From the NCBI GenBank assembly GCA_958009085.1, contig OY253675.1, positions 682,001 to 746,000 of the forward strand: 64,000 nucleotides of DNA, given 5' to 3'. Positions 166 through 64,000 of this stretch are shown here, piece by piece (position 1 is the stretch's first letter; every line of letters starts with the position of its first letter). Made by a program: the position numbers and the translations under genes. Below the pieces are notes generated by a model. That model searched no databases. It was not told the origin of the DNA and saw only the letters and a program-made list of their open reading frames with translations. Source of the DNA: Protoeuglena noctilucae. Taxonomy: Eukaryota.

Positions 166-3100
166 GCGTTCAAGGCCTGCATGAAACTGCGGACACCGCT
201 GCGGTACGCCCTGACTGGCACGCCCATGCCCAACAGATACGGTGAGGGTGGGGAGAGGGTGGTGGTGACAACAAGGGGGTGAGTGAAGGCATGTACAATG
301 GCAGTGCAGTGCGGATGGGGAGAGAGAACGTGAGGGGTGGCTGTGGTAGTCATGCATGTGATGGTGGGACAGTAAGTGAGGGCCCTCGTCTTTACCCCTC
401 ACACCCTCCCAGAGGAGCTCTACGCTCTGGTGGAGTGGGTGACGCAGGGCGACAACCCCCTGGGGGACATCAAGGTGTTCAGAGACGAGATCAGCAGGCC
501 GCTGAGGGAGGGGTTTGACGCGCGGGCCACCCAGGCGCAGAGGGCCAGGGCAGAGGCGGTGCTGCACCGGGTGCAGAACAGGATCAAGTGAGGGAGAGGG
601 AGGGTTGGTGTGAATGTTTGGATGAGTGGTTGGTGTTGATGTCAGTTGATGGAGATGGGCGGTTATTATTGATGGGTGGTGTTTGTACTAACCCCAAAGC
701 GAGGGTGTTTGATTACTGGTCGTGCTATGCCATGGGTAATTACCAAGCATCGTCATGCTTGTCACCGCATCAGACACACCAGACCTCGCCACCTCCCTTT
801 ACTCTCCCCAACCCCCCAGGCGCCTTCTCCTGAAGAGGTCCAAGGACGTCGTGCTCCGTGACGTGCTGCCGATTAAGCGGGATCTCTTTGTGCTGTGCCC
901 GATGAGCGCGGTGCAGACGGCGGCGTATGAGAGGCTGCTGTTGTCGGAAGACACGCAGTGGGTCATCGACGTGGTGATTAGAGGAGTGGGGAAGGGGGGG
1001 GAGGTGAGGAGCATGGATGTGGGAGTGGGTGGTGATTTGGGGGGACGGGAAGGGGGCGGAGGTGAGGGGCGGTGGTGGGGAGATGTGGCAGTGGTTGGGT
1101 GACGGTGGGTGTGTGGCTGACCATTGACATAGTGCGTTTAGAGGGGAGGTGAAGGGCTGTACGAGGGTGGGCGCGTTGAGAGGGAGGGTGCAGGCAGTGT
1201 GGATGTGAGAGCGACAGGGTGCCACTACCACCGAACGTGCTCTCTGCCAATCGTGCTTTGCCCTTCTCTCTCTCAGATGGTGATGGATCCAGAGACCAAG
1301 GGTCCCCTGTGGCGGTCGCTGCACTGCTGCCAGTGCCCCAATGAGGACGGCAAGTGCAACAAGCACAGGCCGGAGGTAAGGGGTGGTGGCTGTGTGAGAT
1401 GGTGGCGGTGGGGGTAGCAGTGAGACTCACCTCACCCCACCCTCACACACCCCACCCTCTCACCCCACCCCACACTCTCTCAACCCCCCCCCCCCCCCCC
1501 CCCCCCCCCAGGGCTGCGAGCCCAAGGGCTTGTTCCAGGGCTGCCCCCAATGCCTGCTCTTTAGCACCCTGGACTTAATGTGGAGGACCGCCAATCACTT
1601 GGAACTGATCAAGGCCAACCCCGTCAAGGACCCCCCCCACAAGGTCGCGACTGACAGGGACGTCGCCAGAATGGCGTTTGGGGAGGACCTGGAGGCCGCG
1701 GGGGGCACGGACCGCATGCAGAAGTTCGAGTTCCTCATGGACTCGAGACAGGTGAGGGTGCTCACCCTCACTCACCTTCACTCTCCCGTGACCCTCCCAG
1801 TACTGACTCACTCCCACTTTACCATACCACTCCCAGTGCGGCAAGCTCCGTGTCCTGGACTTACCTCATCCTCTCCCACTCTTTTTGCCCCTCACAGTAG
1901 TAATGACTCACTCACCGTTACTCACCCTCACATTCTCCCTCACTCACCCCCCCCCTCCCCCCCCCTCACTCCCTCTCCCAGTGCGGCAAGCTCCGTGTCT
2001 TGGACTACCTCCTCCGCCAGTTCCGCGACGAGGGCAAGAAGGCCCTGGTGTTCTCCAACTCGGTGCGACTGCTGCGAATCATTGAGCATTTTGTCATAGC
2101 CACGTATGGTGCTAACTACCTCATGCTGCACGGGGAGGTGCCGGAGGAGGCGAGGAAGCAGATCGTGGTCAAGTTCAACAACAACGAGGTGAGTGGGTGT
2201 GAGTGTGACAGGGGGTGTGTGAGGGGCACGGGAGCAGATTGTGACTTGATTCAACAACGATGAAGTGATGGTGATGGCGGGTGTCAAGTGATGGAGGGGT
2301 GGGCGTCCATCCATCCATCCATCCATCCATCCAATCCACCCCATCCAATCCACCCCCGCAGTCAGTGCGCATCCTCCTGGTCAGCAAGGGCGTGGGGTCG
2401 ATGGGCCTCAACCTGACCGGGGCGCAGAGGGTGGTGATCTTCGACCCATCGTGGACGGCAGACGACGACCTGCAGGCCATGGACAGGGCCTACCGCATGG
2501 GACAGACGCAGGGTGAGGGGTAGATGGGAGTGGATGAGAGTGGTTGGGGCTGATTGGGGTGTAAGTGGAACAGAGGTAGGGTGAGGGTGAGAGTAAGTGG
2601 AGTGCAATTCCTGTCTCATACCCTCCCATCGACCCCAGACGTGGACGTGTACCGCCTGGTCTCCAAGGGCACCGTGGAGGAGGTGCGGTACTGCCGCCAG
2701 ATCTACAAGCGACAGCACGCCGACCAGATACTGGAGGGACGGAAGATGGACCCGTTGTTTAAGGGATATCAGAGGGAGGGGGGATATCAAGAGTTAACGG
2801 ATAGGGACAAGGAGGCGGGGGGGAGTCTGTTTGGGCTCAAGGCGCTGCTGGATGGGGCAGGTGAGAGTGGGGGTGGCAGTAAGGGTGAGGGTAGGGATGA
2901 GGGTGAGGGTGCGGGTGGCAGTGGGGGTGGCAGTGAGGGTGGCAGTGGGGGTGGGAGTGAGGGTGGGGGTGGCAGTGAGGGTGGGAGTGAGGGTGGGGGT
3001 GGCAGTGAGGGTGGCAGTGGGGGTGGGAGTGAGGGTGGGGTTGGCAGCGAGGGTGGGAGTGAGGGTGGGGGTGGCAGTGGGGGTGAGGGTGGCAGTGGGG

Positions 3101-4453
3101 GTGAGGGTGGCAGTAGGGGTGAGGGTGGGGGTGCCAGTTAGATGCGAGCAGACACATCACAATGCAATTTCGCAATCACACCCTCCCGGCGTCGCCTCGC
3201 CTCACTCTTCTGCACTAATCCCATCACCCCCACCTCCCCTTCGCTCTTCCCAGACCGCCATTTCCGCCATTTGCGCACGGGCGCCCAGCGCTACGGCCAC
3301 GCAGGGGGCACGGTGGCGATGGAGGTGGGCGAGAGTCAGGATGATGACGTGGACAGGCAGGGGTGGGTCGTGCAGGACCTGGGGGTGGAGATTTGGCCCA
3401 TGGAGGTGGATGCTGTGGGGGCGGAGGGGGTGGGTGGGAGCGACGATGACGGGGGAGGTGAGGGGCATGAGGGGGGTGGGGGGGGTGGCAGGGAAGGGGT
3501 GTGGTTGTGTATGCGCATGGGTGCGGTTTGTGGGTGGGTTGATGGGTGTGAGTGTGGCAGGTAAGGGCTGGGGTTGTGTATGTGTGTGTGTGCGGTGGCA
3601 GGGTGACTGGCGAGGTGGGCAGTAAAACGACCCTTTGGTTTGTTACATAGTCTTTGTTATCGTCACTATCAGTATCTAGCAAATACTGTTTCGATCATCT
3701 TCCTGTGGTGCAGGGTCGATGGGTACGTTACGTGAGACGCAGTCGTCGGATGCATGGGATGGGGACACGGGTGACGAGTCGTGTGGGAAGTCAGATGGCA
3801 GTGACTGGCACAGCGGAGAGTGGGGTTCGGGTGGTGGTGGTGGTGGTGGTGGTGGGAGTGCAGAGGAGGGGTCGGCGGATGCCGAGTCAGCTTGGGGCGA
3901 TGGGGGGGTGGCTGATGGGGCTATTGGTGGGGTCATTAATGGGGTTGCTGCTAGAGTAACTGAGGTTGGGGCCGTTGATGGGGTCACTGGTGGGGTCATT
4001 GATGGGGTCAGCGATTGCAGCGGTGATGTCAAGGGCGTCAGGGGCGCGAGGGTCATTGTCATTGGATCTTCGTCATCGGACGATACGCGTGGGGGTGACT
4101 CTGCGGGAGAGGAGGGGGTACGAGGGGCGGGGGAAGCGACGGCGACGAGTGCCGGGGCGGAGAGGGGAGGGAGTGAGGGTGGCAGTGAGGGCAGGGGTGT
4201 GGGTGGGAGTGAGGGTGGGAGTGCGGGTGGCAGTGGGGGCGGCAATGCTGGCGGCAATGCGGGCGGGAGTGGGGACGCGATTGCGGGCGGGGATGTGGGC
4301 GGGAGTGCGGGCGGTGGGGCAGGGGGTGGGGCACAGGGGGCTTCGGTGGGTGCGGGTGCTGCGGTGGGTGCGCCTCGCGTTCTGGGTGCGACGGGGTCGA
4401 CGGTGCCAGACGCGGGACCTAAAGTCATCAAGAGAAAGCTCGCTTGGACATAG
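166..4453 (+). CDS. ERCC6L2: SNF2-family ATPase, ERCC6L2 / plant Switch2 (CHR9)-like; 5'-partial, about 10 exons in the window
   Basis: GT-AG exons at ~166-241, 412-587, 820-970, 1277-1375, 1512-1751, 1982-2188, 2362-2512, 2639-2860, 3254-3457 and 3714-4453 join in frame. Motifs include [82 protein letters not shown] and [12 protein letters not shown]. The C-terminus is Gly/Asp-rich. Confidence 0.85.
2861..3137 (+). repeat. Intronic hexamer-based low-complexity array (GAGGGT/GGCAGT/GGGGGT)
   Basis: Directly visible tandem hexamer variants that start at the GT donor at 2861. The Gly/Val-Arg/His-Pro ORFs here are by-products of the array. Confidence 0.85.
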
Positions 4454-4657
4454 GGGCCGAATGTTTTGCGAGTCCGCAGCATAGTATCTGTCAGCTTTGC
4501 CCCGAGCATTGTCGGGCTGAGGCCGCTCTGCCGGCTCGTGGTTTCTTGGCGTGCGCGCGGCAACCACTTCACGCACCATCGCTTTCGGCATTTGTGCCTG
4601 AACTTCTTGTTTCTCGCCATTGGCTCCTAGGCGGGAGACGTCGCCCTAGCTGCCACC

Positions 4658-7600
4658 ATGTCTACGACCACCGCCTTTGAAGAGGACGAGGGGATGAGGC
4701 TGGGGTACTGGAAGTACTCGGCCAGCAAGGTTCGTGGCTCCGCGGTTCAGGAAGCGGGCGGAAGCGGGCGCGCAAGGAGCCCATGGGACACCTTTCGGCG
4801 CCTTGCTGCAGCGCTAGGCGCCGTTGTTCCGGACAGGAGCGTGTGTTTGCGCTGTTCCAAGTCGAATGTGGTCGATGGGCTGGTCCGATCATCCATACAA
4901 AGCCACTTCGGCCGGCGGGCGGTTGTGAGATCTGCGCATCTGCATATGCCGCTGCGGCGCGATCGGACGCCGCTGCCCCTTCCCCTGCGCTCGGCAGGAC
5001 GGGCTGATGATGGCACACCGTGCCATTCGCCGCGGGAGCGAGATCCTCTTCGTCGCTATGCGGGAGATGCACCGCCGCGCCAAGGAGGTAGGTGGCTCCC
5101 CTTCGCGCGCCTGCAATCGCGTGCGCTCCCCTAATGCGGCAATGCGGGCTCACGAATCCATACTTGCTCGATCGTCATCATCCCCGCCGCAAGCGTCGGT
5201 CGATTGCCGCGCGATCGTCGGCAAGGTGAACCTGGTGATGCGCAGGGCAAGACCCTGCAGCCGTTCGAGATCCAGGCCCTGAAGGACTTCGCCGAGGTCT
5301 ACGGCATCTTCCTGCACATCCACCACGACGGCGAGGAGCACTACTTCTTCCCCTTTATCAACGAGGCGAGGCCCTCAGTTGCGCTCAGTTGCCCTGCTCC
5401 AGCTACCGGTCGCGGCTGCGGAGTAGCCGTCTGCACCTGCTGCAAAGTATACTACAGCTCGTTGTCTTAATACTCGTCTCGTCCATGAAATTCCGCAGGC
5501 GCTGGAGCGCGTCGCGAAGGAGAAGGGCTCGCCGGCTGAGACGATCCCGGCGCGCATGGCCAAAGACCACGAGAGCCTTGTCCAAAACCTGGACAAGTTC
5601 TTGAACGGCGTCAGGGGCCTCAGCGACGTGTCGGGCGCGGACAAACAGGCGCAGGCGCTGGAGGCCATCATGACGCACTTCGTGGCAGCATCCAAGGAGA
5701 TGTTTGCGCATTTGAAGGAGGAGGAGGAGATCGTGCTCCCCCTGATGCGCCGCACCGTGACGCAGGAGCAGCTCAGCTGAAGCCCGTCGAGGCCAAGATT
5801 GCCAAGCACGCCACGGCCAACCCCCAGGCCACTCAGTACGCCTTCACCATGATGTGCAAGGCAAGGGCCGGCTGGGCTGGGCAGCTGCGGGGGAATCTGC
5901 GGGGGGAGACGCAGGAGGCAGAGAGCCCAACACACGTTGCACACCCGTTCCCAATCGCTTACACCCGCCCAACCGCGCTTGAACACCCACATAGCTCGTG
6001 TCCCCGCCACTGCTGGCGCACCACACCCGACTGCCAGTGCCATACCATACCATACCATACCATGCCATGCCATGCCATGCCATGCCATGCCCCCAGGTGT
6101 CGGAGCGCAAGGCCCTCATGGACTTCGCGGGCATCCCCGGCATCGTGCAGTCGCTCATCCTCGCCCCCCAACTCAAGCGCTTCACCAAGGGCACGCTCGC
6201 CCGCCTCGAGGGGTGCTTCGTGGGCGCGGAGAGGGTGCCCGTGAAGGAGTCGGTCATTGACCAGTTCGAGGGGTGAGTGGGTGGCGGATGGGTGAGGTGG
6301 TACTGGAGTTAGGAGGGAGAGAGTGAGTGATGGACCAGTTTGCATGTGGGACGGGGACGACCACCGGTGTTGATGCATTTGACTCGTCTCATGGGCGTCT
6401 TCCGCAGGAAGGAGTTCTGGCAGGACGATTACAAATCCCCCTCGTTCAACTACAAGATGGGTGAGTCGCCCCGGCGGGGGTGCTGTGGGTGCATGGGGGC
6501 GTGAGGGAACTGCCACGGGGGGCCGTGCACCAGGATGCGGCGTGGGTGACGTGAGGACCCTTGAGTTAATAGCAGCATGGAAGGCGCATTGCCGTAGAGC
6601 CTTTGTTTGGGTTCGTCTGATGATTTCTCATTTTGGGTTCCTTGATGGCCCAGGCGCTTGGCATGCGGTGGGCAGCGCTGTCATTGGGTTCCCAGGCCGC
6701 CAGCAGCCGTCACGCTGCGGTGGCGGCCTGTCGTTGCGGCCGGCGCGTTTCTTTTCCGCTCATTTACGCCCCTGATTGGCACTGCTTGTGCCGTCGCGCC
6801 CTTTCCACGTTGAACGCCCACGGCTGCCCACCGCCACTTGCCCACGCTTGCCCACCGCCCCCGCCACTTGCCCTCCCACCCACTGTCACCCGCTACCCCT
6901 GCCACCCTGCCGCTCACCTCCCCCGCCCCTGACCTGCGAGCAGACTTCTCCAGCGAGGAGGACGGCGGCGCCTGGTTGTCCTCGGTGGGCATCCTCGTGC
7001 TCCTCATCTCCATCGCCCTGGGCATCACGGCACTGTCCTTCGACGTTCCCATGCTGAACAAGGTGACGCGGGTGGTGGTTAAAGTGAACTGCGGTGTCCC
7101 ATGCTCAAGTGAGGTGACCGGGGTGGCAGGTTGGACTGCTCCCACGCACACCATTCCATCCCCGCAGGTGCTCCCCCAGCAGTATGGCTCCAAGGCCATC
7201 GCGTGGCCCGGGGGCGGCTTCGCGCACCTCCCCATCGCCGAGTACCGCGCAGAGGTGGCCATGCGCCCCAACGTGGACGCCGCGTACCTCTACACCTGGA
7301 ACGACAAGGTGAGGCGGGTTTGGGGGTGCGGGGGTGGATGGGGGTGTGCGTGGCTGGGGTAGCAGGGACGGCAGGGTTGGTGATACTGGCGAGGATGGCG
7401 GGGGTGTGGATGGGTGATGCTGTCGATAAGCGGAGTTGGGCAGGTGTGTTAGGCTGCTGGGCTAAGGAGAGTGTCGCTGCCGTCTCATAGGCGCAGCTAC
7501 GGTCGTTGAGATCGCAGGTGCACACCCAGTGCGATGCGAAGACGGCCAAGGGCAGCAAGCCGGCTGCGGGCGGCAAGGCCACTGACGGCAAGGCTACGGA

Positions 7601-7949
7601 TGCTGGCAAGCCTGCTGCTGACGGCAAGGCTACGGATGCTGGCAAGCCTGCTGCTGGCGGCAAGGCCACTGACGGCAAGGCCACGGATGCTGGCAAGCCC
7701 GCCCCTGCCCCCGCCGCTGGTGGCGCTGCCAAGCCCGCTCCCGCCCCCGCCACTGCTGACGGCGCCAAGCCCGCCCCCGCCGCTGCTGCCGGCGCCAAGC
7801 GTGCGCCTGCCACTGCTGACGGCGCCAAGCCTGCCCCTGCCGCTGCTGCCGGCGCCAAGCCCGCCCCTGCCGCTGCTGCCGGGAGCAAGCCCGCCGGCGC
7901 TGCCGCTGGCAAGACCGCGGGCGCGGCCAAGCCGATGGCTGCCGTGTGA
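4658..7949 (+). CDS. Hemerythrin (HHE cation-binding) domain protein with a TM helix and an Ala/Pro/Lys-rich repetitive C-terminus; one apparent frameshift at 5769-5778
   Basis: Exons ~4658-4729, 4998-5087, 5246-5365, 5499-5860, 6097-6272, 6408-6460, 6944-7062, 7168-7308 and 7519-7949. Hemerythrin motifs AHRAIRR, LHIHHDGEE, DHESL and HLKEEEE. Hydrophobic helix VGILVLLISIALGITALSF. Two GC-AG introns. Confidence 0.75.
6041..6090. repeat. Intronic pentanucleotide microsatellite (CATAC)n(CATGC)n
   Basis: Directly visible array immediately upstream of the acceptor at 6096. Confidence 0.9.
7553..7930 (+). repeat. Coding tandem repeats (GKATDAGKPAA / GAKPAPAAAA units)
   Basis: Repeated GGCAAGGCYACGGATGCTGGCAAGCC and GGCGCCAAGCCCGCCCC units in the last exon of the hemerythrin gene. 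Confidence 0.85.
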
Positions 7950-12083: not shown

Positions 12084-12115
12084 CACGGATACGCACAACA
12101 AAACAACTGTTGGTC

Positions 12116-12315
12116 NNNNNNNNNNNNNNNNNNNNNNNNNNNNNNNNNNNNNNNNNNNNNNNNNNNNNNNNNNNNNNNNNNNNNNNNNNNNNNNNNNNNN
12201 NNNNNNNNNNNNNNNNNNNNNNNNNNNNNNNNNNNNNNNNNNNNNNNNNNNNNNNNNNNNNNNNNNNNNNNNNNNNNNNNNNNNNNNNNNNNNNNNNNNN
12301 NNNNNNNNNNNNNNN
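12116..12315. other. Assembly gap (200 N)
   Basis: Run of N characters. Confidence 1.
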
Positions 12316-17205: not shown

Positions 17206-17385
17206 TCAGCCCCGCTTGGCCCTCTTGCCACCCCCACCCCGCCCTTTCCCTTGCTCCCCGCTCTCCCGCTTCCCACCCCCACCCTCGCCCCGCCCACGCC
17301 CCCCCGCCTTCTCCCCGCGCCCCCCTTTGCCCCTACCCCCTCGCCCACCACCACCACGACCCCTCGCACCCTCACTTGCCCCCTC
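17206..17385 (-). repeat. Direct-repeat copy 1 (~180 bp), a duplicate of the last ~60 codons of the PUF6 CDS
   Basis: Near-identical to 20031-20216 apart from a few substitutions and a 6-bp indel. Both copies begin TCAGCCCCGCTTGGCCCTCTTGCC. Confidence 0.95.
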
Positions 17386-20030: not shown

Positions 20031-20216
20031 TCAGCCCCGCTTGGCCCTCTTGCCACCCCCACCCCTCCCCTTCCCTTGCCCTTGCTCCCCACCCTCCCGC
20101 TTCCCACCCCCACCCTCGCCCCGCCCACGCCCCCCCGCCTTCTCCCCGCGCCCCCCTTTGCCCCTACCCCCTCGCCCACCACCACCACGACCCCTCGCAC
20201 CCTCACTCGCCCCCTC
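20031..20216 (-). repeat. Direct-repeat copy 2 (the real 3' end of the PUF6 CDS, ending at its TGA)
   Basis: Matches 17206-17385. It encodes EGASEGARGRGGGG...KRAKRG*. Confidence 0.95.
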
Positions 20217-44766: not shown

Positions 44767-47717
44767 ATGTCGGAGCTTGGATGCGTGCCACGCGGGTGGT
44801 CGCCCGAGGAGGACTCGCGGCTCGCCCGGTGCGCATTGCTGCTGTGGGTTGTCGACATCGCAGCCCACAGGGCGCAGCGCCCACTGCGAGCTCCTCGCGT
44901 TCCCCCTGCCCCGCAGTCTCGTGGCGGATCACGGCGAAGGGAATTGGAGCAAGGTCTCGGAGCTCATCGGTGGGCGGCGGAGTGGCGGGAAGCAGCTTAC
45001 ATCCTGGGCTGCAGCTCCCACCCCGGCTCGCGACTTTCCGGAGCCATCGTCCCCGCAGGCGGACGCACCGGCAAACAGTGCCGGGAGAGGTGGCTGAATC
45101 ACGTGCGCCCGGGCATCAACTTTGCGGGGTGGACGGACGAGGAGGAGGCGATGCTCGTTCGCGCCCACATGGAGCACGGGAATCGCTGGAAGGACATCGC
45201 AAAGGTAAATCTGCGATGTATGATGCAATCGCGCAGGCCATGCGGCCGGGAACGGCGACGAATCGCTCGCTCGGCGCGCCTGACACATGTCCGCCGGCTT
45301 ACTCAGGCGATTCCGGGCCGCACGGAGAACCAGGTCAAGAACCACGTGCACAAGACGCTGCGACGCATCCGCCGGGGCTCCCACGACGAGGGCGGCCTGC
45401 ACACGTTAGCGGAATACCTGTCGCGGTGAGCCAACAGGCTCCAGCTGCGATGCGCGAGGGGCGGCTCAACATGTGCTTGGCGGACCATTCATCGCATCTT
45501 ACCTTCCCGCAGGTCCGTGCCCGGTTTGAGCCAGCGCCCGGCCCGGCCGGGGGCAAGCGGCGGGTCGGGCAAGCAGCGGCGCCCTCGCGAGCCCCGGGAG
45601 CCCTCCCGGAGTCAGTCCCCCCGCCGCGGGCGCAGCCGGGCTCGCAAGGGCTGTTCGCGCCGGCGCACGTGCTCCCTCGACACCGACGCTGCGCCCAGGC
45701 AGGACGCGTATGGGGACCCGCAGGCGAGTAACTGCGGCAGACTTGCTTGCATGCGCGACGATAGCGCTTGCGAGTTGACATGAGCTGAGACGACCGCAAC
45801 AATGCAGAGCAGAGCAGCATGGACCGATGTCAACAGCTAGCAGCCTGGCTGTCGTTGCTGCAGCCCCAATGTTAACCCGAGACCTTGTCTGCTCCTTGCC
45901 AACAGGACAGCCACGCCCACGCGCAGGCGTGGCCCCATGCGCTGCACCAGCACCGCCCCAGGGGCGCTCTGGGGGCGCAGGACGCGAGACCTGACGTCAG
46001 CACGCCCAGCCTCGTGGACTCGAGCGTGTGGGGCTTATCGGGCGATGTCGATGATGGGTGTGTCGAGGACCTGTTGGGTCCCCTGGGCCTGTTTGGGGAC
46101 GGTCTCGGGTTCGAGTCCCGCGTGGGACAGGCCTGCGTTAAACAGCCGGCAGGCGCGGCGGGGCAGCTGCAGGCGGGGGCGCGATGGTCGGACAGCAGTG
46201 GCGTCGGGGCGGAGAGCTGGGCTTTGAGTGGCGCGCGCAGGCCCGGCCGCGAGGCAAGGGGTGGCCCCTGCTCCCCGCCAGGTGTGAGGCGCGGGTGGTG
46301 TTGACTGGCAGGGCCGCTGGCAGCGCGTTGTCACAAATTATAGCTAAAACGCAAATGGTCCCTGCTTTTGGTCCTACCCGCAGATCGGGACGCGACCGTC
46401 TGCGTGGCGCTGTCGACGCCCCCCATGTCACCCGGGGTCAGCTGGGATCGCAAGGCGGGGGGCGTGCGGCAGGGGCGGGGCGGGGCGCTGACGAGGCGTG
46501 GCAGCCAGGACGCGTCGCGCCACGAGTGCCGGGGTGAGTCGGACGGATGTATGCGGTAATGGGATACAGACAGGGGACTGACTGGTGGGGTGAGGGTGGA
46601 GGTGGAGAGCTGCACCTGGGATTTGGCGGGCTTTCATGCGCTTGCACTGTCGACCTTACTGCCTGTGACAGTGAGCCTTGATTAATTGTGGATGCATTGC
46701 ACCTACATCTCCCTGCAGATCGCGACACCACCCCAGAGCTCGACCACTGCTCCTCTCCCACACCCCCCACGCACCGTGACGCTTCCCGCCACACCCACGT
46801 CCACCCCTGCAACACTGCCCCGCCCTGCTATGGCGCCTGGGGTCGAGAGGGCTCCGCGATCCGTGACTCCACGCACACCATGGCCTGTTCTGGCACGGCC
46901 GCTTCGTCAGAGCGCCGCCAGAATCGACCGTCCGGGCATTCAATGGCCCTCGCGTCCGCCCCTGCGTTGCCGCCTTCTGGCTCCGCCGGGTCTTGCCATA
47001 AGAAACATGGAAAGATCAGGACCCATGCCGATGGCTGCAATTGTGGGCTCCGGGGGGCGTGCAGCGCTCCAGACGTAGCGGCTGGTGCGGCGGGGCATGC
47101 GGTGGGGTGGCAGGAGGGTGGGAGTGCGGTGGGGTGCGACGCGGCCGTGGGGTCGGAGACGGGTGGCGCGACGGGTGCGGTGTGGGAGTTGGCGGGTGCT
47201 GGGTCGTCGGAGTGGGACGCTTGCAGAGACGTGGCGATGCTTCACCCGACGTGGATGCCGGGGCCCACGTGCACGTGAGTGGGTGGATGGTGGGGGTGGG
47301 GTGGTATGAGAGTGGGTGGCTGTGCATATGAATGGGTGGATGGTTGCTGTGGATGGCTGTGCACGTGAGCGGGTGGATGATGGAGATGGGGATGGTTGCT
47401 GTGGGTGGCTGTGCATATGAGTGGGTGGATGGTGGGAGTGGGTGGCTGTGGGTGGCAATGGGTGGTGATAGCGCGAGCGATGGTGGGTGGGAGTACATTA
47501 CATGACAATTTCCCACTCAGTTGCCTCATTCGCCACTCTCTGTAATCTTATCCGCAGGATGCAGCGGCTGTGCCAGTGCGAGGGTGCCGGGTGCCACTCA
47601 GGCAGGGGTTGCGTAGGCGGCGGCAGCGATGTGGCGTGCGATGGGGCGTGGCTGCCTGCCATCAGCCCCTGCGATCTCGCGTCGCTGGAGGAGCTGGCGG
47701 ACATATTCGGACAGTGA
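44767..47717 (+). CDS. R2R3-MYB transcription factor (C-terminal exons less certain)
   Basis: GWSPEED-x-GNWSKV-x-RTGKQCRERWLNHVRP, then WTDEEE-x-HGNRWKDIAK-AIPGRTENQVKNH, followed by low-complexity exons. Confidence 0.85.
47269..47456 (+). repeat. Degenerate four-unit tandem array derived from a donor junction of the MYB gene
   Basis: Units start at 47269, 47322, 47359 and 47411 with GTGCA(CG/TA)TGA-(G/A)(T/C)-GGGTGGATG. Confidence 0.75.
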
Positions 47718-51400: not shown

Positions 51401-54400
51401 GGGGGGAGGGGGAGGTGATTCCATGTTAATGGCTAGATATTGTGCAAAAAGCTTGTCATGTTTATCATGTTTACCATGCTTATCATGTTTATCTATTACC
51501 ACCTCCCCCACCTGCATGTCCTTGGTCCTCCGCAGCGCCAGTGCTATCGGTGAACACTTTCAGACAAGCACTATCAACAATACCATAACTGCCATTAAAT
51601 TATCACCATCACCACATCCTACCTGCATGTCCTTGGTCCTCCGCAGCGCCAGTGCCCCCAGGAAGACCCTCAGCGCCTGGAGACCCTCCTCACGACCCTG
51701 GGGCGACACAAGCAGAAGAGATTAATAGCAAATCATAGCAAATCAGAGAATCTGCTGACCTAAATTACAGCAACTATGGCAACAATATCACTGCCAGTGG
51801 TAATAAGTGTTACAAATGTATTACTATGATGATATATAGTACTATCTATAACAATTAAACACCGCTCTCACCTCCCTGAGCGGCCTGGTCACGGCCCTGT
51901 TCCACGCAGCCGGGCTGTCCATGAGCGGCAGTCGCAGGAACCGCGCCAATCCAAACAGGTCCTCTGCCTTGTTCTGAATGGGGGTGCCGGTCAGGATCCA
52001 ACTGGGGGAGAGAGGGGGGGGGTGGTAATTGTTATATAACAATAATATTCAATTACTGTTGTAAATATTGTCCCTTCAGTACTATTATTATATGACTAAC
52101 AATACCACTCTCAATAGTACCCACCCTCACCCCCACTCCCACCCCCGCCGCCACCCTTTCCACCACCCCCACCCCCACCCCCACCTTCACCCCAACGCAC
52201 CCCACTCCCCCAACCCCCCCTCCTCTCATCACCCCCACCCCCACACACCCCACGCCCCCATCCCCCCCCACCCCTCACCGGAACTGCGCCTGGAGCGCAC
52301 AGGCGGCCTTGTTTGTCTTGGTGCGTGGGTTGCGAATCACGTGACCCTCATCCAGCACCACGCGCAGCCAGGGTGTGCGGGAGAGGGGGCCGGTGGTGCC
52401 CTCGGTGGACAGCACGTTGTAGGTGGTGAGCACGATGTCGTAGCTAGAGAGCTCTGGGGGTGAGGGTGGCAGCGAGGGTAGCAGTGGGGGTGGCAGTGGG
52501 GGTGGCAGTGGGGGTGGCAGTGAGAGTGGCAATAAGTGAGGCAATGATTGTGGCAGTGGGGGTGGCAGTGGCACTGGGCTGGCGGTATACCTTACTCGGG
52601 TGAGCAGGGACACATGTCACACCCCATGCGATCTTCGCATGCCTTTGTCACACTCACCCTTGGCCCCCCTGGCCCTGGCCGCATTGGAGGAGTGGTACAG
52701 GTGCACCGAGAGTGCGTTTGGCAGAACGTGCTGTCGGATCTGCTCCTCCCAGTTGCTCAGCACGCTGACCTGGGGTGAGGGGAGGGAGAGAGTGGGTGGG
52801 TGTGAGCTGGTAAGTGTTGTGTTATATGGGTTGGCAGTCATGAAAACGGTGATCATCCACCCGGGATCATCGTTTCTACCAATACCAATCTCTTTCATAC
52901 CATTAATAGCTAGCATTGCCAGCTCATCCACACCAACTTATCCACTCCCTAACCGCGCACACGATGAGCGTCCGCTGCTCATCCCTCAACCCTCACCATT
53001 CTCACCAGTCAGCTGTAATACCACTGATATCTAATGATCATGATAACAAATTATTTACTCTCTCACCGGGCACACGATGAGCGTCCCCTTGCCCCCTTCC
53101 GCCTCCACTGTCGCCCAGTCGCCGTGCAGTGCCCCGTCCATCGACCACGCCAGCGACAACTCCGCATCCAGCTGTGACTGGGTCTGGGGCTGAGACACTG
53201 CGATTGTAAGAATAGGGACACTCATGGTTTGGTAACAATCAATGTGGATGTGCATCAACACACCCGCACCCGCACTGCCACCCCCACTGCCACCCCCACC
53301 CGCACCCTCACCTGCACCGCCACCCCCCTTGCCCCTCCCCCACCTCCCGCGCCCTGCCTTGGCCTTGGCAGTCTTTTTGTAACCCTTCTTGGGGCGCTTG
53401 GCAGGGGCCTGCGAGTAGTCATCAAGTGAACACCCATAAAGATAGTGAATAAGTGACTATTCGATTCGGGGACAAAACGTATGCCACATATTATGCCACA
53501 TATTATCTCATTTGCTCAAATCAGCTCCTATGATCCTCACCTCCACCACCACCACATCGTCATCCTCCTCTCTCTTGACCACCCCAGCACCCCCACCCTT
53601 GTCACTCCCCGCAGCCGCCCCCACCACCACCACATCATCATCATCCTCTCTCTTCACCCCTGCGGCAGGTAAAGAAGCGCCGAAATTACCCATCGCATCG
53701 CCTAGCATCCACAGTGCCACACCCGCATCACGCATTACAGCACCTATCACCCTAGCCACCCACACCCACATCACAGCATAGCATTTACTACCCTAGCACC
53801 TATCACACCCACCCGCATCACATGTCATCACCTCACAACATCACAGTACCCCATCCCCTCTCACCTTGCACGCCTGTTGCTGTAACCGAGTCCACCACCG
53901 GCGTGGCCCTCAGCACCGGGACACCGGCGCTGTCATCTCCACCCACGTTGTTGTTACCCATGTTGTTCACCACCGTGCCGTTGCTCATCCCAGGCAGCGC
54001 AGGGAGGGTCATGGGGAGGCCATAGAGCTGCATACCATTACCCATAGCCAAGTAAGGGACGAGGCGAGGGTCGGCGACTGGCAATGCAGGCATGGTCCAT
54101 TGGGGTTGCATGCCCCAGCGAGGGTCGATCATGGGCAAGGGGGGAAGGGAAATGGGGGGTAGAGTGGAGATGGGGGGTAGAGTGCCCAGGGGAGCGCTGA
54201 GGTGTGGGTTGAGGGATGGGTTGCTTGCATGGTTGAGTTGGGGGTTGCTTGCGGGGTTGAATTGGGGATTGTTCTGAGGGTTGCTCGTCGTGTGTTGGCC
54301 AGAGGGGGCGTTGACGGGGAGGAGGGGCGGGCGAGGGACGCCGGGGCGGTGGGAGACGATGAGTGCCAGTGCGGTGATGGTCTTGCCCAGGCCCTGCGTG

Positions 54401-56305
54401 TGTGAGAGAAAGGGTGCATGATGTAAGACAATGAGTGCGAGTGCGGAAATGGTCTTGCCCAGGCCCTGGGTGTGTGAGAGAGAGGGGTGGGTGAGGGTGG
54501 GCTGTGAGTGCGGTGGTCAGTACCCAGCGATCTCACGCGTTCTGCAAAACGTCGGTATCCATCAGTGATCACCACTATTATCATTCCCATGTGTACGACT
54601 CACCATGTCGTCTGCCAGGATGCCACCCCTACACGGCTGGGGTCGGTTGGGGCCGGCGTTGTGGTGGAAGAGGGTGTTGACGTACGAAAGGGCGCCGCCC
54701 TCCAGTCGGGGCTCCCAGAAGGGGGGGAGGCGGCTGCGGAACTGTGTTAAAGAGAGGGGAGGTGTGGATGGGGTGAGAGTGGGGGTGAGGGGGAGATTGG
54801 CATGGGCAGAGTGGGGTGGCTGTGGAGGTGTGAGCGAGAGAGTGGCATGAAGGGTGACGGTGAGCGGACTGCGCTGAGCGAGAGACAAAGAGGAGCGCAT
54901 GCACCCTAATTACACCCTGTGTATGACCCGCTCTCGAGCTCTCACCTCGCGCTGCATCATCCACGCCAACGCCTGGCGCTGGTGGGGGAAGAGCGGGGTG
55001 AGCAGGTCGGGGAGTGGCTGGGCTTCACAGACCTCCGCAGCCTGCAGGTGAAAGGCATGGATTGGGTTCACCAACCAGACAGCTGACCCAACCAGCCGTG
55101 GCGACTCGCAAACGCATCGGTCCACAAACACATCTCCTGCACTCGCTGGCCCCGATGCGTAGATAGTATCGAGCAGCATCCGACCCACTGCCCTCCACAG
55201 CACTCACCTGCTCTCGCAGCATCTCCTCAAACATCGCATCCAGCCGTCGCTGCAGGGCGTCCCTCGGCATGCGCGCGCCGGTGCCGGTGCCCAGCCTCTG
55301 ACCCGCGGACTGGCCCCCGCGGAACGTACCGCCCCGGACGTTCGTGCTGCGATCCAAGCAAAGGCCCGGGCTGGCCATGAGACCTCGAGCTCGGCCACTA
55401 GGGTCGGTGGGCGCGACGGGCGCGGGGGCGGCTCCCGCGCCGCGCAGCTCGCGCACATCGTTCATATATCGCTACTTGCCTCGAGTACTGGTTCAGATAA
55501 GGGTTGTCCTCCTCGAGGACCGTCACGCCATCGCGCTCCAGCCTCTGCAGAACGAAGGTGCGGTCCTGAGGCCGCGCGTAGAGGTAAACATTGATGGGGG
55601 CGTTGAACCTGCAAGAAATGGGCCGGGAGGTCGACGGTCGGGACGGGAGGGAGCTGCGAACACAGTGTGGAGCTGCTGGCCACTTCGGAGCGACGGTGCC
55701 CCGCCGGCAGGTCCGCGCGGGTGCAAATGCATCATGACATGGCTAAGCAAAGGCTGAGACGGGCGGCGGTACGTTAGCGCGACGGATGAAGGGCGTGCAG
55801 CTGACGAGACCTAGCAACGCCCGCCCGGGGTCACTCACTTCGCGCGCATGCCCATGTAGGAGAAGGGGACCTGTCCTTCGCATCGGAGCTTCCCGGAGTC
55901 CATCTGCGGCCGCAGCAAGGTCGCCACGTCAACCGGTCACACCGTTCCTAGGTCACGCACGATTCCGAGCGAATCCCGCGAACAGGTCGGACACAGCCGC
56001 GCGCCAAGCGTCCGTATGACCAAGACCGTTCGTGGAGAGGTCACGCCGCACCGAAGGACCCAACACACGGTGCTCACCAGCGGGGCCAGCGCGGCGGCCT
56101 TCGCGCGTGCGATGAAGCCCACCCGGTGGTTCAGCACGCTGTATATCCCGATAGCGTTTTCGTCATACGCGTTCTCGTAGTCACGTTGCAGGATGGCCAT
56201 CTCGCCCGCGCCGATGCGGCCATTGGCGAAGCGGATGCCCACGATATCCAGCGGCGCCACGCCCACCAGGTCGAACTCGAGGATGTCCTCATCCTCGTCC
56301 GACAT
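48461..56305 (-). CDS. HLTF: HLTF/RAD5-like (SMARCA3-like) protein: HIRAN + SNF2 ATPase + RING + helicase C
   Basis: HIRAN (IVGIRF...[14 protein letters not shown]...VGFI), [81 protein letters not shown]...[44 protein letters not shown] and GTVEERM. Confidence 0.92.
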
Positions 56306-58259: not shown

Positions 58260-61042
58260 CTATGCCTTCTCCTTCTTCTCCTTCTTTTCCTTTTTCTCCT
58301 TCTGCAGACATCCCGAGCAAACCAATACTCAGCATCGCCCCTTGGCCATGAGAACACGCCTACATTAGATTCTCTCGCAGCCCCGGCCATGATCACTGTG
58401 CATGCACTTCGACACCCGCCAGCCTCCACTCCGCACCTTTTCTTTCTTCGCCTTCTTGCTCTCCCTGTTCTCCGCCCCGTCGGCCTCCACCTTGGCCTTC
58501 TTGTCCCCCCGCCCGTCCCCCGCCTCCTCCCTCTCCCTCTTCTTCTCCTTTTTCGCCTTCTTCGCGTCCCCGTCCGCCATCACCACGTCCGCCCCCGCGT
58601 TGTACCCCGCCCCCGCGCCCCGCGGCTTCTCGTACTTGGCCGGCTGCGCCTGCGCCTTCACCACCGCGTCCGACCCCAACTGACGGCCCTCCAACTGACG
58701 AAGGCGGGCCTCCACCTGCGGAAGGGGATCGAATGCACACATAGTATCGATCAGTCACTCGATTCGCATGCACAGTTACTCGACTCGCATCTACACGTGC
58801 TCCCGGCACCCTCCTCGCCCCTCTCCACTCCCTAACCACTCGCCATGCCCCCGCCCACACCTCCCCACCCTTCTTCCAGCCCCCTCGCCTTGTTCCTCCC
58901 GTCCAGCCCGACCGTGGCGTCCGTCGACTCCCCCAGCGCGTCCACGCGGATGGCCAGCGAGCACTTGGCCGCGAGCACGCGAGAGATCTTGCCCTTGATC
59001 TTGGGCGCGCTCTGCCCCACGAGCGACGCGTGGTAGATGAGGCCGTACTTGGGCGTCTCCTTCTTGGTCTTGAGCGCCCGGAAAAGCGCCTTCTCCGCCC
59101 CCAGGATTTGAACCGTCGACGCGGGGTGCTTTGCCAGGCTGAGCAGCGACCCGGCGTGCGAGATGAGCCGCGCCCCCACCAGCTCCCCCACCAGCACCGT
59201 CAGGTTCGGCGCCACGGCCTGCATGCGGCTCTTCAGGTAGTCGTACAGCTGAGCGCGATACTCGGAGAGAGAGATGACCTGGTCCGCCAAGGACTGCACG
59301 TGCGCCAAATCGTCCGCCGATATCTGAGGGGCAACGAGGGGGCGGGGATGGGCGGTGAGTAAGGAAGAGAGACAGAAGGATGGGCAGGTGGTGCTGGCGG
59401 CGAGTAAAGCCATCTCCTCTGCACCCCATCAATACCATCTTAACACACCACCCTCACCTCCGTCCCCATCGACACCATGGCCGCGTCCTTGACCTCCTGC
59501 GCCGTGTCCTCATTCGCGCAGATCCCCGCCAGGTCCGCCTCCTGGGCCTTGGACCGGTCCCCCAGGGCCTTTACGATGCGGGCGTACTCGAGGTTGTCGG
59601 GCACGATCTTGCCCATCTCGGGGTAGTGCCAGCCGTACCACTCCCGCACGCGCATGGCGTACGTGTTGAGCTGCGAGCAGAGCAGGGGGTGGGCAGATGT
59701 GTGGAAGCTGTGCATACAGTATGCTGAGCAGACAGTATGCCAAGCACGGACGTTCTCTGTCCCACGTATGCCCACTCCACCGCCCCACACTCGCAGGCAG
59801 CGACCCGCCCATGCATGCATCTGTCCAACATGCACCCATTCAAACCACCCCATACTCGCAGGCAGCAACCCGTGCACACACGTGACCCCCCCCTCACCTC
59901 CTTGTCCAAGTCATCCAGGAGGCCAATGGCCTGCACGATCATCGTGTCGACCTTGTCCGGCGAGAACTTGAGCTTGTAGCGAGACAGGGAGTGCGACAGG
60001 CCCAGCGCCATAGGGGTCAGGTCGTGGCCCGCCAGCCCCGCCACCAAGCCCTGCAGCTGCGTGCGCACGCCCCGGACGAGCTCCAGCACGCCGTTGCCGT
60101 GGATGCATGGAATGCCGAGCTTCTCCTTAACCAAAGACCCCAGTTTGGCGTCGATCACGGCCAGCGAGTCGCCCTCCGCGTGCTTCTTAAGGAACTTCTT
60201 CAGGTTCTTGCTCAGCTTCGAGTCCACGATGGCCGTGGCCGCGGCGAGGGCCTCCGTGGTGTTCTCGAACTGAGAGAAGGCCTTCAGCTTCACGATCTGC
60301 GGGGGCGGGGGCGCGGGAGCGTCGGGCGCGGCGGGGCGGGGGGCGCACACCTGGGCGCCGGCCGAGCCGAGACGCGGCGCGGAGGGGACCCCGGGGCACA
60401 GCCGGCGTGCTCGCTACGAGCACCCGAGCACGTGGCAAAGGACTCCGCCTCCGCTGGTCCCCAGGGCGCGGCGGGCGGCCTTCCCGCGGGACACGGCGTG
60501 CCGCCAGAGAAAGGGGCCCGGCGCCCGGAGCCGAGCAGAGGCGGCCCACCCAGGGCACCCGAATAAAGGTGGGGCTCAAACGGACGCGGAAAAGCGTGCC
60601 AGACGGCGCGTGGGCCAGCAAGCCGCCGCACTTCCGCCCGTCCCAGGCCCCCGTCCCCTCCCGCGTCTCCAAACAGCCTCCGCCACGGCCATGACGCGCA
60701 CCGACGAGAGAAATCAGCACAAAGAGGACATCGGGCGAACACGGGGCGCGGGAGGACGCGGCACGAGCGTGCAAGGGCCGTCCGTCACCTTCTGGGCCTT
60801 CTCCAGCGTCTCGAAGTCCGAGAACAAGTCCTGCGCGGGCAGAGACAGTCATCATTCGTACCATACGATGCGGTGGGTGAGCGGGGGGCGAGTTAGCCCC
60901 CTCAGCGCGACGCCGGTCCTGCGCCCCTTTGCTGCCGGCCCTGCGCGCGCGCCGGGGCCCCCACCTCCGCCTCCTCGACCTTCTTCTCCTTCAGAACCTT
61001 GAAAAGGGCGAAACCCGCTGCCGTCTCGAACAGCAGCAGCAT
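58260..61042 (-). CDS. NOP58: Nucleolar protein 58 (box C/D snoRNP core)
   Basis: [103 protein letters not shown] and a KKE-rich tail. Confidence 0.97.
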
Positions 61043-61434
61043 CGCCCCGCTCGCACGCACGCCCTACCCCGCGACAGCGGCCAACAGCAGTCCAGCGGAC
61101 GATTGCAAGCGGATGCCGAGTACCGACGCTGGCGGTTTCCAAGGCAGTCACGACTGGCAGCACGTGGGGGCCGCGGCGTCCCCAACGACCCCGGCGGGCC
61201 AGGCACTGGCGTTGCAGCACGCCGCGAGTAGGCATGGCGCGGACGAAACGTCGTGTTTTGAATGTTTTGTGGGGCTGCGGCGGACGCCTATCGCGTGAAA
61301 GGGAAGCGGGCGCTGCCAGGCCTTAGCATTACTGCTCGCATCAAACGGTGGGGGAGAAGGGAGAACGGAAAACGTGCGGCCATGCTGTGTCAAACGCCTA
61401 AGCCGGCGACCCTCCGGCGCCGGACTCTCGACGT

Positions 61435-64000
61435 CTAGAAGTCCGAGTCGATGACGATCTGGTGCCCGGCGTACGACAGCTGCAGCGCGGGCTGCTCGGG
61501 GCGGACCATGTTCCCGGGCACGGCCGCGGGGCGGATGAAGCCCTGATGCAGCCCCGCCTGCATGCCGCTCGGAGCGTTCATGACGTCCTCGGCCGCGGTG
61601 ATCAGCACGCCCTTCTCCTGCGGCGGGGAGCGGGCACGGGGCGGGCGGTGAGACGCGGCATGCAGGCGAGAGGAGCGCACGCATCCCACACACCAACACA
61701 CGATGCCGCCACAAGCACTGCACAAGATCCGCTCTGCGTTACACAGAACAATGACCCCGCGCGTGCTTGCAAGCACATGCATTCCCACAAGCACAAACAT
61801 CGCCACGCGCACGCCTCCCCACCCCCACCCCCGCTCTCACGTTGACCCATCGGTCGTGCCGTGCCGTCCACTCCTTCTTGTCCTCCTCCTTCATCATCTG
61901 CACCACCACCTCCTCCAAGATGGCTCCCAGGTCCAGGGCAGGGGCCGGGATGGCCGTCACGTGCGCCCGGCACTGCGGTGGGGCGGGTGGAGGGCAACAG
62001 GTGGGTGGAAGGCAGCTGGTGGAAAAGGCGTACTTATCAGATAAGAGCGGGATGCGGGGTGCCAGCCTGTGCCCTCAGCTTCGGGCATGAGATGCGCACT
62101 CTTAGCTAACCCGTGCCTCTCCCATCGTCTCACCTTGGGGCATGAGATGCGCGTCCCCTCTCGCCCCTGCTCCCGTGGGTTCTTGACCGCCACGTGCTTG
62201 ACCCACTGCAGGATGCAAGTGCCGCAGAAGGTGTGGCCGCACGGGGTCACTGCGGGGGGTGGGGGTGGGGGTGCTGGTGAGGGACGAGGGGTGCTGAGAG
62301 GCTGACAGGGGTGGGGAGGGTGCAAGTGCAGGTGAGGCAAGCGGAGAGAAACAAGCAAGTTTGCAACCACCATGCACCCCATGCACGCAGCGCGCATGCA
62401 CAGGGCATCGTGCAACTCCACCCCTTCCCCTCCCCGCATCGCCCCTCACCCGTGTAGGGCGCGACCATGATCTCCATGCAGATGGCGCAGGTGGTGCGCT
62501 GGAACATGGTGTCGGAGGCGTTGCTCAGCAGCTCGCGCGTGGCGTCCTGCGTAATGCCCGCCTGCCGCGCGCCCTGCGCCGGCCCCACCGGCTGCCACCC
62601 CTGCCCCTGGCTCTCCCGCGCCACCGAGAGCAGCGCCTCGAGGGCGTAAAAGGCGTTCTGCGCCACCGCCGCGTGCATGAGCGCCTGCATCGTCCCTGCC
62701 TGCTCCACCGCCGCCGCCACCAGGTGGTGCCGCTCCCCCGCGCTCCCCGCCGACTGCAGCTGGTTCTCCAGCTTCACCGCCGCCGCGATCGCCGCCTGCG
62801 TCGCCCCCATCGGGCCCACCCCCGCCATGTCCCCGTCCTCCACCTTGCGCTTGCGCGCCATGGGCGTGTCGTCGTCGCCGTTCTGCGAATGTCGAGCATT
62901 GTGAGATGAGAAAGAGTACGAGCACGGAACACACACGCTGATGGTGGTGGACTGAGCCACCCTGCATGCCCCTCTTCCTCTCGCCTGCGAGTCGCAGTCC
63001 ATGCCACACCCCCCTGCCACCACACCCATCCACAAACACACACACATCCTCCCCCCAGTCGGAGTCTCACCTGCGAGTCGCAGTCCATGTCCTGGTTGGC
63101 GTCGTCCCCGACGTTGCGGGCGGGGGCGGGGTGCGACAGCATCCACTGGTTGATAATGTCGGCGACTTGCGAGAAGCCGTTCGCCATCGCCATCTGGGAC
63201 ACCGACACCCCGTTGCCGAGCACCCGCGGGTCCGCCCCGGCCTCCAGCAGCTGCCGCGTGACCTCCACCCGGCCACGCTGCGCCGCATAGTGCAGCGGCG
63301 TCAGGCCCACCTCGTCGGGGATCGTGGGGTCGATCCCCGGGGCCGCCAGGAGCACTGCGGGGGGCGGCGGATGGGGGGGATGAGCGATGCACCCACGCAT
63401 CCCATCACCCTATGTCACGCCCAGCGCCCCTGCACACACCGTCCACGCCACCCCTCTCTTTTTTGATCTTTAGAAACCCACATCACCCTCCCTATTCCGC
63501 TCTCCGCCCCCCACACCGCCCCTCCCGCCCAGCACCACACACACACGCACCGCCCCCCGCCCCTCCGCCTCCTCACCTGACATGATGTGGGCCTGTCCCT
63601 CGGACACGGCCATGTGCAGCGCCGTCTGGCCGTCCCCGGACCTGGCGTTGACGTCCCCGCCGAACTCCAGGAGCTGCCGGGCCGCGTCGGCCTGCCCCTT
63701 GAGCGCGGCCAGGTGCAGCGCAGTCCGGCCGTTGGTCTCCGAGGCCGCCCTGGCCAGCTGCGGCGCGGCCGGCAGCACCAGCTGCAGGATCTCGACGTGC
63801 CCGTGCGACGCGGCGATGTGCGCCACCGTCTGGCCCTGGTTGGTGATGGCGGTGGGCGACGCGCCGGCGATGAGCAGCGCCCGCACGACCGCGGGCAGCC
63901 CGTGCTTCACCGCGAAGTGCAGCGGCGTGGCGCCGTGCACCTCCCGCTGGTCCACCATGTGCGGGAAGTTGCTGAGCACGAACCCCACCGCCGCCGGCGA
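61435..64000 (-). CDS. Ankyrin-repeat + C3HC4 RING E3 ubiquitin ligase (5'-partial)
   Basis: Ankyrin motifs GATPLHFA, GQTVAHIA, GRTALHLA, GQTALHMA and GLTPLHYA. RING CAICMEIMVAPY-TVTPCGHTFCGTCI-x-CPKCR. Stop at 61435. Confidence 0.88.

Follow-up and report, generated by a model that had tools for sequence, protein, structure and literature searches.

Why should exon/intron boundaries recur, as short and nearly identical copies, inside the very introns that they delimit? The question is raised by a stretch of DNA from Protoeuglena noctilucae (contig OY253675.1; the whole stretch analysed, 64,000 nucleotides long, is called the window below), in which an earlier note, made from the sequence alone, had described at least 17 such 'splice-junction echoes' in five genes. 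The follow-up analysis confirms that the junction echoes are real copies. As for their origin, an even chance is given here to the reading that they are young scars of a continual, direct-only local duplication in introns, probably seeded in the G-rich and C-rich tracts at the intron ends, with the products tolerated in introns and decaying there.

Count, genes and coordinates agree with the earlier description, positions 1830 and 63089 marking the outermost copies. Seventeen repeat pairs span a splice junction: one in the SNF2 gene, four in the guanylate cyclase gene, one in the gene downstream of the MYB domain, nine in HLTF and two in ANK-RING. They comprise 12 donor copies and five acceptor copies, every copy being direct and lying within the adjacent intron, with echo lengths of 19-61 nt, spacings of 38-164 nt and pairwise identities of 85-100% (over the 17 pairs, 504 of 538 sites are identical between the copies and 34 differ). 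The pairs are given below, one per line, with the copy at the real junction, the echo, the strand, the spacing in nt, the identical sites and, where noted, the support for the junction and the contigs that cover it, namely DNA contigs of an independent marine metagenome (X5) and RNA contigs (X8 and X9).

Real 1975-2006, echo 1830-1861, plus strand: SNF2 acceptor echo, exon start 1982, intron 1752-1981; spacing 145, 31/32; Pfam Helicase_C and predictor.
Real 36013-36033 (predicted GC-type donor), echo 35939-35959, minus strand: guanylate cyclase donor echo, intron 35774-36017; spacing 74, 20/21; Pfam Guanylate_cyc and predictor.
Real 37961-37984, echo 37923-37946, minus strand: guanylate cyclase donor echo, near-tandem, 14-nt spacer; spacing 38, 22/24; predictor only.
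Real 38462-38491, echo 38382-38411, minus strand: guanylate cyclase donor echo, intron 38174-38463; spacing 80, 30/30; predictor only.
Real 39270-39306, echo 39232-39268, minus strand: guanylate cyclase donor echo, plain tandem duplication, length 37; spacing 38, 34/37.
47269..47465, plus strand: MYB-side donor echo array, units 47269-47291, 47322-47344 and on, period ~52 nt; predictor only; X5 contig.
Real 48612-48632, echo 48692-48712, minus strand: HLTF acceptor echo in the last intron, exon start 48625; spacing 80, 21/21; X5 contig.
Real 49912-49937, echo 49803-49828, minus strand: HLTF donor echo, exon end 49902; spacing 109; X5 contig.
Real 50225-50251, echo 50145-50171, minus strand: HLTF donor echo at the end of the RING exon; spacing 80, 26/27; tblastn; X5 contig.
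Real 50349-50367, echo 50475-50493, minus strand: HLTF acceptor echo, exon start 50365; spacing 126, 18/19; tblastn.
Real 50825-50866, echo 50661-50702, minus strand: HLTF donor echo in the same intron as the 50349 acceptor echo; spacing 164, 41/42.
Real 50982-51032, echo 51128-51178, minus strand: HLTF acceptor echo, exon start 51027; spacing 146, 46/51; tblastn.
Real 51621-51655, echo 51510-51544, minus strand: HLTF donor echo, exon end 51623; spacing 111, 35/35; tblastn, which matches the echo too.
Real 53047-53086, echo 52934-52973, minus strand: HLTF donor echo; spacing 113, 34/40; X5 contig.
Real 54354-54414, echo 54426-54486, minus strand: HLTF acceptor echo of the Walker-A exon, near-tandem, length 61, 11-nt spacer; spacing 72, 55/61; RNA contigs X8 and X9; X5 contig.
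Real 62129-62152, echo 62074-62097 (GT changed), minus strand: ANK-RING donor echo, intron 61973-62133; spacing 55, 22/24; RNA contigs X8 and X9; X5 contig.
Real 63065-63089, echo 62979-63003 (GT changed to GC), minus strand: ANK-RING donor echo, intron 62883-63070; spacing 86, 24/25; RNA contig X8; X5 contig.

The copied pieces share a characteristic placement. Their intron share amounts to 2-21 nt and the rest is exonic (one pair has no intron nucleotide in its ungapped match), and every copy has one end 0-21 nt from the junction, on the intron side. In the MYB-side minisatellite the first unit crosses the predicted exon end and includes six exon nucleotides; the match of the HLTF echo at 49803 extends over a 1-nt gap to a GC-type pseudo-donor; and the HLTF echo 51128-51178 is immediately preceded by a C run. 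The pair 48612/48692, previously taken for a donor echo of the MYB-side gene, turned out to be an acceptor echo in the last HLTF intron on the minus strand. The consistent polarity emphasized in the earlier note was found again, with donor copies downstream and acceptor copies upstream, but it is no independent evidence, because a copy within the adjacent intron necessarily lies downstream of a donor and upstream of an acceptor.

The junctions against which the echoes were judged come from 63 introns in eight genes, which yield 126 junction probes. RNA contigs define the ANK-RING exons and the HLTF exon 53864-54393, tblastn with homologues gave thirteen HLTF exon cores, and the remaining junctions were taken from a simple exon-chain predictor trained on the RNA and homology data, which recovered eight of nine RNA-supported ANK-RING junctions and missed the donor at 63576. 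The curated HLTF model has a stop-free frame of 1125 aa with 20 introns, and its exon lengths from 54393 to 56078 add up to the 568 nt demanded by the RNA contig. Least secure are the guanylate cyclase and MYB-side junctions, which rest mainly on the predictor. The predictor also mistook three echoes for mini-exons (51512-51543, 51118-51173 and 49817-49840, minus strand). A predicted 119-nt HLTF exon at 53541-53659 (minus strand) is built from an acidic, valine-rich stretch that occurs twice in frame at a distance of 78 nt, and the reading frame of the model depends on this predicted exon.

The copies exceed chance. An annotation-free repeat scan (11-nt seed, spacing 15-300, length at least 16, complexity filter) found 34 unique direct repeats in the window, compared with 0-1 in each of 20 block shuffles, and 0 inverted repeats, a planted positive control having been recovered. 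A separate inverted-repeat scan gave 40 pairs, and the 25 listed among them are G/C-run or GC-palindrome matches whose longest perfect arm is 14 nt. Junction probes composed of 30 exon and 12 intron bases, matched at a threshold score of at least 14, hit their own intron in 18 of 126 cases (13 of 63 donors, five of 63 acceptors); the same probes gave no match in 1008 comparisons with other introns and none in 126 comparisons with the reverse complement of their own intron.

Independent DNA and RNA agree with this result. The X5 contigs, compared over a 20-kb stretch that excludes the SNF2 echo and the four echoes of guanylate cyclase, show 0 differences and 0 gaps over at least eight echoes (48612, 49803, 50145, 52934, 54354, 62074, 62979 and the 47269 array), while among the listed X5 pieces none lies over the 50349, 50661, 50982 and 51510 pairs. 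Contigs of a second culture sample (X3) agree with the window wherever listed. On the RNA side, contigs of X8 and X9 join 61972 to 62134 in ANK-RING, contig pieces of X8 stop at 62882 and resume at 63071 in the same gene, and both X8 and X9 start the HLTF exon at 54393. At all three RNA-covered echo junctions (62134, 63071, 54393) the exon-adjacent copy is the spliced one, although contigs could miss rare use of the inner site; at the other 14 echo junctions, reading frame and homology point to use of the outer site.

The copies are young and drift neutrally. Differences affect 21 of 404 sites (5.2%) in the exon-derived parts of the echoes, distributed as 6, 6 and 9 over codon positions 1, 2 and 3, and 13 of 134 sites in the intron parts. 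The idea that echoes are kept as coding sequence was rejected, since the differences show no codon-position bias. Echo donors score 5.9 bits vs 11.1 bits for the real donors (Wilcoxon p=0.019, n=12), with GT missing in four of the 12; about half of them exceed 6.4 bits, the 90th percentile of intronic GT sites. All five acceptor echoes retain AG and have scores near those of the real sites.

Layout divides the echoes into two groups. In six of the 17 the junction is straddled by a tandem or decayed-tandem unit of 38-164 nt. Four of these are tandem or near-tandem, namely 39232 (spacing/length 38/37), 54426 (72/61), 37923 (38/24) and the MYB-side array, with spacers of 1-14 nt in the pairs, and two retain decayed unit-wide homology: 50661 (164-nt unit, Smith-Waterman z=13), in which homology links the spacer with the sequence past the echo, and 52934 (113-nt unit, weak). 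A head-to-tail layout without an unrelated spacer is absent in the other eleven, the spacers of which measure 31-113 nt. Taken together, the spacers have a median GC of ~0.44 vs 0.64 for the genome and continuous lengths of 1-122 nt; their only matches elsewhere in the 64-kb window are homopolymer runs and no spacer matches another, so that a mobile spacer family was rejected within the window. Combining ranks for spacer versus post-echo homology by Fisher's method gave p ~0.04, a value that is confounded by shared local composition and is not relied on. Nearly every intron, whether it bears an echo or not, contains AT-rich islands, and several echoes have them on both sides. Echo-bearing introns are 255 nt long vs 165 nt for the others; subtracting the spacing leaves 157 nt (not significant) and subtracting the copy length leaves 222 nt (p=0.008), weak evidence that one event adds copy and spacer together.

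The tracts in which the duplications are probably seeded form part of a general intron layout, in which a G/T-rich 5' portion gives way to AT-rich sequence and this in turn to a C-rich 3' portion. Intron ends or neighbouring introns could pair, since the C-rich portion corresponds to the donor-like repeats in reverse complement, and complementary arms of up to 26 nt (92%) are seen, for example at 49339-49364 / 49558-49583. A dispersed G-rich minisatellite family with a 12/18-nt period is found at 2807-3166, 4113-4334, 39552-39719 and 52412-52537, and it has to be very abundant genome-wide, given an X3 k-mer depth of ~10,000 in the 52005-52671 bin vs a baseline of ~300. G-rich minisatellites start exactly at predicted donors in the SNF2 2861 array and the 47269 array.

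On the preferred reading, local direct duplication would act continually on introns and give rise to both tandem units and spaced duplications. The G-rich (5') and C-rich (3') tracts abutting the two splice sites would be the preferred starting points of the events, and the exon edge would be copied because it is the only complex sequence within reach of these terminal tracts. The eleven spaced copies would most likely stem from the same replication or repair errors, either as a duplication with filler or as a short templated copy. Products landing in exons would be purged unless in frame, and an inner junction copy would be tolerated because the spliceosome continues to use the outer site; the inner copies would then decay, donor motifs fastest. 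The echoes appear neutral or mildly harmful.

Several observations fit this account. The 34 direct and 0 inverted repeats of the window bear out the earlier proposal of a very active short-range duplication process, whose orientation is direct here. Its second element, that selection shapes the survivors, also holds up, as the spacing is a multiple of 3 in every repeat found in apparent coding sequence and in only 3 of the 17 echoes. The further claim that only junction-spanning products survive does not stand, as for 32 of the 212 intron-internal windows a local direct copy exists as well, about as frequently as for junctions. Twenty-five of these are G-rich or C-rich low-complexity arrays, and the seven complex matches come to about four loci (the MYB-side minisatellite, NOP56 59779/59844, the SNF2 array at 2861 and the intronic portion of an echo). 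The NOP56 pair, 59779-59807 / 59844-59872 (minus strand; 29 nt, spacing 65), carries a GC-donor-like motif and no exon sequence, and a pair of 43 nt with a spacing of 69 lies at 3485-3527 / 3554-3596 (plus strand), downstream of the SNF2 exon 3254-3457; these two are the only clear complex two-copy duplications inside introns. Echo spacings are 2 mod 3 in 11 of 17 cases, 0 mod 3 in three and 1 mod 3 in three, an unexplained excess of the first class with a one-class binomial p of ~0.008 before correction for three classes.

Other results weigh against the preferred reading. When complex sequence alone is considered, 17 of 21 loci are junction-spanning copies, where 26.5% would be expected from complex neutral 30-mer sources (p = 3e-7, ~12-fold), and exon-internal pieces are copied into introns essentially never (1 match in 276 exon-internal probes tested against the adjacent intron, which is the tail of the 51-nt echo). 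A uniform model of random copying plus selection fails on both counts, and a junction-linked bias therefore remains. The comparison of junctions with intron-internal sequence proposed in the earlier note comes out two ways within the window, the raw rates being alike and the excess appearing in complex sequence, and its interpretation as a whole is partly supported. Repeat coverage on the donor side peaks at 15-18% from -20 to +9 and dips to 8-9% from +10 to +29, with no smooth fall from the intron tract into the exon. The eleven spaced echoes, 51510 among them, have copies of 19-51 nt that are 90-100% identical next to AT-richer spacers that are not alignable with the sequence past the echo, and they are for this reason not simply decayed tandem duplications. 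Polymerase-theta-type templated insertion usually leaves inverted copies too, and the lack of inverted copies here is at odds with it. The argument from intron length is confounded, since longer introns are a bigger target, and the flanks of the two copies are equally native in composition and do not tell the ancestral copy apart. When metagenomes were scanned for orthologous loci, distant relatives alone turned up (L001-L004), with 0-2 local repeats each, and these did not serve to polarise the events. Finally, the evidence comes from one 64-kb window and partly from our own gene models.

Of the alternatives, the one that survives best, although we consider it unlikely, places the spacer first: a foreign or filler piece of 1-122 nt would be inserted at a staggered break across the junction, fill-in would duplicate 19-61 nt on both sides, and only those duplications that contain a splice site would rescue the exon. 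The low GC and continuous lengths of the spacers speak for it, as does the finding that echo introns are longer by about the spacing and not by the copy length, and a duplicated piece that is mostly exonic with 2-21 intron nucleotides (none in one pair) is what would be expected if crossing the junction rescues the event. Yet the spacers have no relatives in the 64 kb save homopolymer runs, AT-rich islands are present in nearly all introns and lie on both sides of several echoes, and introns as a class have no flanking duplication above the null: over 63 introns the end-to-end match at intron ends averages 2.14 vs 2.18 for shuffled donor/acceptor pairings, with no target-site duplication, and a 7-nt intron-end repeat, present in the intron 51399-51622 only, is within the null range. 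Equivalent events in the intron interior would be expected to be common, but only 2-4 complex interior pairs exist. In the acceptor echoes, moreover, the native branch site would precede the inner AG, yet RNA at 54393 shows that the outer AG is used.

Another alternative is a mechanism directed at the junction itself. In its general form it is doubtful, to about the same degree as the filler insertion: repair of boundary breaks, or template switches, at the structure-prone starts of the G- and C-rich tracts would repeatedly copy the junction inward, and introns would extend from both ends, acquiring graded series of decoy splice sites and, from iterated and decayed echoes, the G-rich 5' and C-rich 3' architecture. 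The stricter version, in which breaks or switches strike at the exon/intron boundary (for example at the edge of a G-rich, R-loop- or quadruplex-prone tract, or in the course of co-transcriptional processing), each intron lengthens inward from either end and the terminal tracts are a fossil record of iterated echoes, is less probable still. Such a mechanism gains from the 12-fold junction excess in complex sequence, from a repeat-coverage peak centred on the donor, from the one end of each copy that lies 0-21 nt from the junction on the intron side, from minisatellites that begin exactly at donors, and from a density of donor-like motifs (at least 9 bits) of 4.0 per kb in 5' intron halves vs 0.27 per kb in exons. 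The last point loses force in that the antisense frequency is equal (4.07 per kb), so that composition alone may explain the motifs. Acceptor-side repeat coverage falls smoothly into the exon, as in simple spill-over; echo density is very uneven among genes, with nine echoes at 40 HLTF junctions and none at the 18 junctions of NOP56, NTM1 and photolyase together; and the breaks themselves are hypothetical.

It is very unlikely that the inner copies are functional decoys, kept for splicing control as alternative sites that feed nonsense-mediated decay or as extra landing sites for U1/U2AF. Use of an echo site would shift the frame in most cases, since 14 of 17 spacings are not multiples of 3, and both the stronger half of the echo donors and the five acceptor echoes with intact AG and near-real scores are compatible with such a role. 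Against it, echo donors are much weaker on average than real ones and a third of them lack GT, the differences between copies show no pattern of constraint, the exon-derived part has no obvious role, and only real sites are used among the RNA joints listed, with the reservation that contigs drop rare forms.

An assembly or gap-fill artefact is scarcely credible: the single run of exactly 200 N in the window (12116-12315, an assembly gap or a masked stretch) does imply a scaffolded assembly, but it lies far from all echoes, the X5 and X3 contigs are identical to the window over the echoes that they cover, with no difference and no gap, and the two members of the pairs disagree at 34 of 538 aligned sites.

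The window that holds the echoes has a G+C content of 64%. Genes were placed by Pfam scans of open frames across it, as follows.

1-5 kb, plus strand: SNF2 helicase gene.
35.7-40.7 kb, minus strand: guanylate cyclase gene.
From 44.4 kb, plus strand: MYB gene.
48.5-56.9 kb, minus strand: HLTF/RAD5-type gene with HIRAN, SNF2, RING and helicase-C domains.
61.2-64 kb, minus strand: ANK-RING gene.
Also placed by Pfam: genes for a MinD-like ATPase, an NTM1 methyltransferase, a photolyase, a CRAL-TRIO protein and NOP56/58.

In a protein search the closest HLTF/RAD5 proteins were green algal, at ~70% identity, and no identical protein was on record for HLTF; the Walker-A exon of HLTF, which is mostly low-complexity, gave no match as a protein query. 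The window DNA is present in culture runs and, nearly whole, in marine metagenomes, and marine metatranscriptomes carry its exonic part. Judged by these matches, the source would be a marine green-alga-like eukaryote. Tandem repeats also occur in long open frames, at 7555-7908, 21497-21610 and 33173-33298, with periods of 15-90, 57 and 21 nt that are multiples of three, and are probably repetitive coding sequence of unannotated genes. A C-rich stretch at 17220-17376 recurs 2.8 kb off at 20045-20207, with up to 95% identity over 40 nt, and may represent a larger local duplication in an unannotated region.

What the echoes mean depends on how far they extend. If their density holds genome-wide, this genome would contain natural 'duplicated splice site' experiments, graded in age and numbering in the hundreds to thousands, offering a test of how the spliceosome chooses between near-identical sites, of whether the outermost always wins and of why an upstream AG copy is skipped; it would also show the rate at which decoys are disarmed and whether local duplication is a main route of intron lengthening. 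If the junction excess is confirmed, it would reveal a mutational process tied to exon/intron boundaries, with a bearing on intron growth and splice-site movement. If the echoes are mere spill-over from repeat-prone intron tracts, they would be a curiosity of one repeat-rich genome and still a warning for gene prediction, as automatic annotation of the Protoeuglena noctilucae genome is likely to turn echoes into false exons in the way that our predictor did.

Among known processes, the templated-insertion scars of polymerase theta resemble the echoes in that a short insert taken from nearby sequence fits copies of 19-61 nt lying 38-164 nt from their presumed source, and they differ in their inverted, snap-back copies, which are absent here (0 inverted vs 34 direct). 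In Daphnia and related work, short direct repeats at new introns have been attributed to double-strand-break repair. The likeness is that break repair leaves direct repeats in and around introns; the Daphnia-type repeats, however, span a few bases and lie on either side of whole new introns, whereas those described here are junction copies of 19-61 nt inside existing introns. Emiliania, considered on account of its GC-type donors, was set aside: ~56% of its junctions are reported to be of the GC-AG type, seven of 63 predicted donors are of the GC type here, and the closest proteins are green algal. Introner elements are a further case, reportedly treated by Gozashti and colleagues in 2022 as transposon-generated introns.

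The introns of Micromonas offer a further comparison: Micromonas is likewise a marine GC-rich alga with many similar-looking, repeat-rich introns, and has insertions that supply splice signals or duplicate them (Verhelst et al. 2013, PMC3879977). In contrast to the Micromonas introners, neither the spacers nor the introns of the window fall into a sequence family there, and no target-site duplication flanks the introns, as it would in introner- or transposon-generated ones (PMC3879977). The donor consensus also differs, being GTGAG here and GTGCGT in Micromonas (PMC3879977).

The Rogers model, in the form given by Hellsten et al. 2011 (PMC3265369), creates introns by tandem duplication of an exon segment containing AGGT. 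Short intragenic direct duplications that copy splice signals, with splicing rescuing the transcript, are common to that model and to the echoes (PMC3265369). It predicts, however, that the 3' end of the intron carries a second copy of the exon end, and the next exon one of the intron start (PMC3265369). No such repeat exceeds the null at the intron ends here, and the echoes sit inside pre-existing introns.

The closest precedent is the minisatellite in intron 7 of the human F7 gene. Its first unit spans the exon/intron boundary and the pseudo-donors within are silent (PMC1557585). In both systems a direct repeat across the donor places pseudo-5' splice sites inside the intron, a layout shared with F7 by the MYB-side array and by the near-tandem echoes with 38-nt and 72-nt spacing (PMC1557585). 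In F7 the most upstream, exon-adjacent site is used (PMC1557585); here the RNA contigs show the outer site in use at the three echo junctions that they cover, where rare splicing at inner sites may escape them. F7 is a single locus with strictly tandem, identical units, unlike the 17 junctions in five genes within 64 kb found here, where acceptors are affected as well and 11 of 17 copies stand behind unrelated spacers (PMC1557585). The literature, with subscription journals outside coverage, yielded single-gene precedents and no genome-scale description of junction copies at this density. It is this density, together with the involvement of acceptors, the spaced copies and an unexplained bias towards junctions, that makes the echoes notable, and in comparison with the systems above both the density and the junction bias look new.

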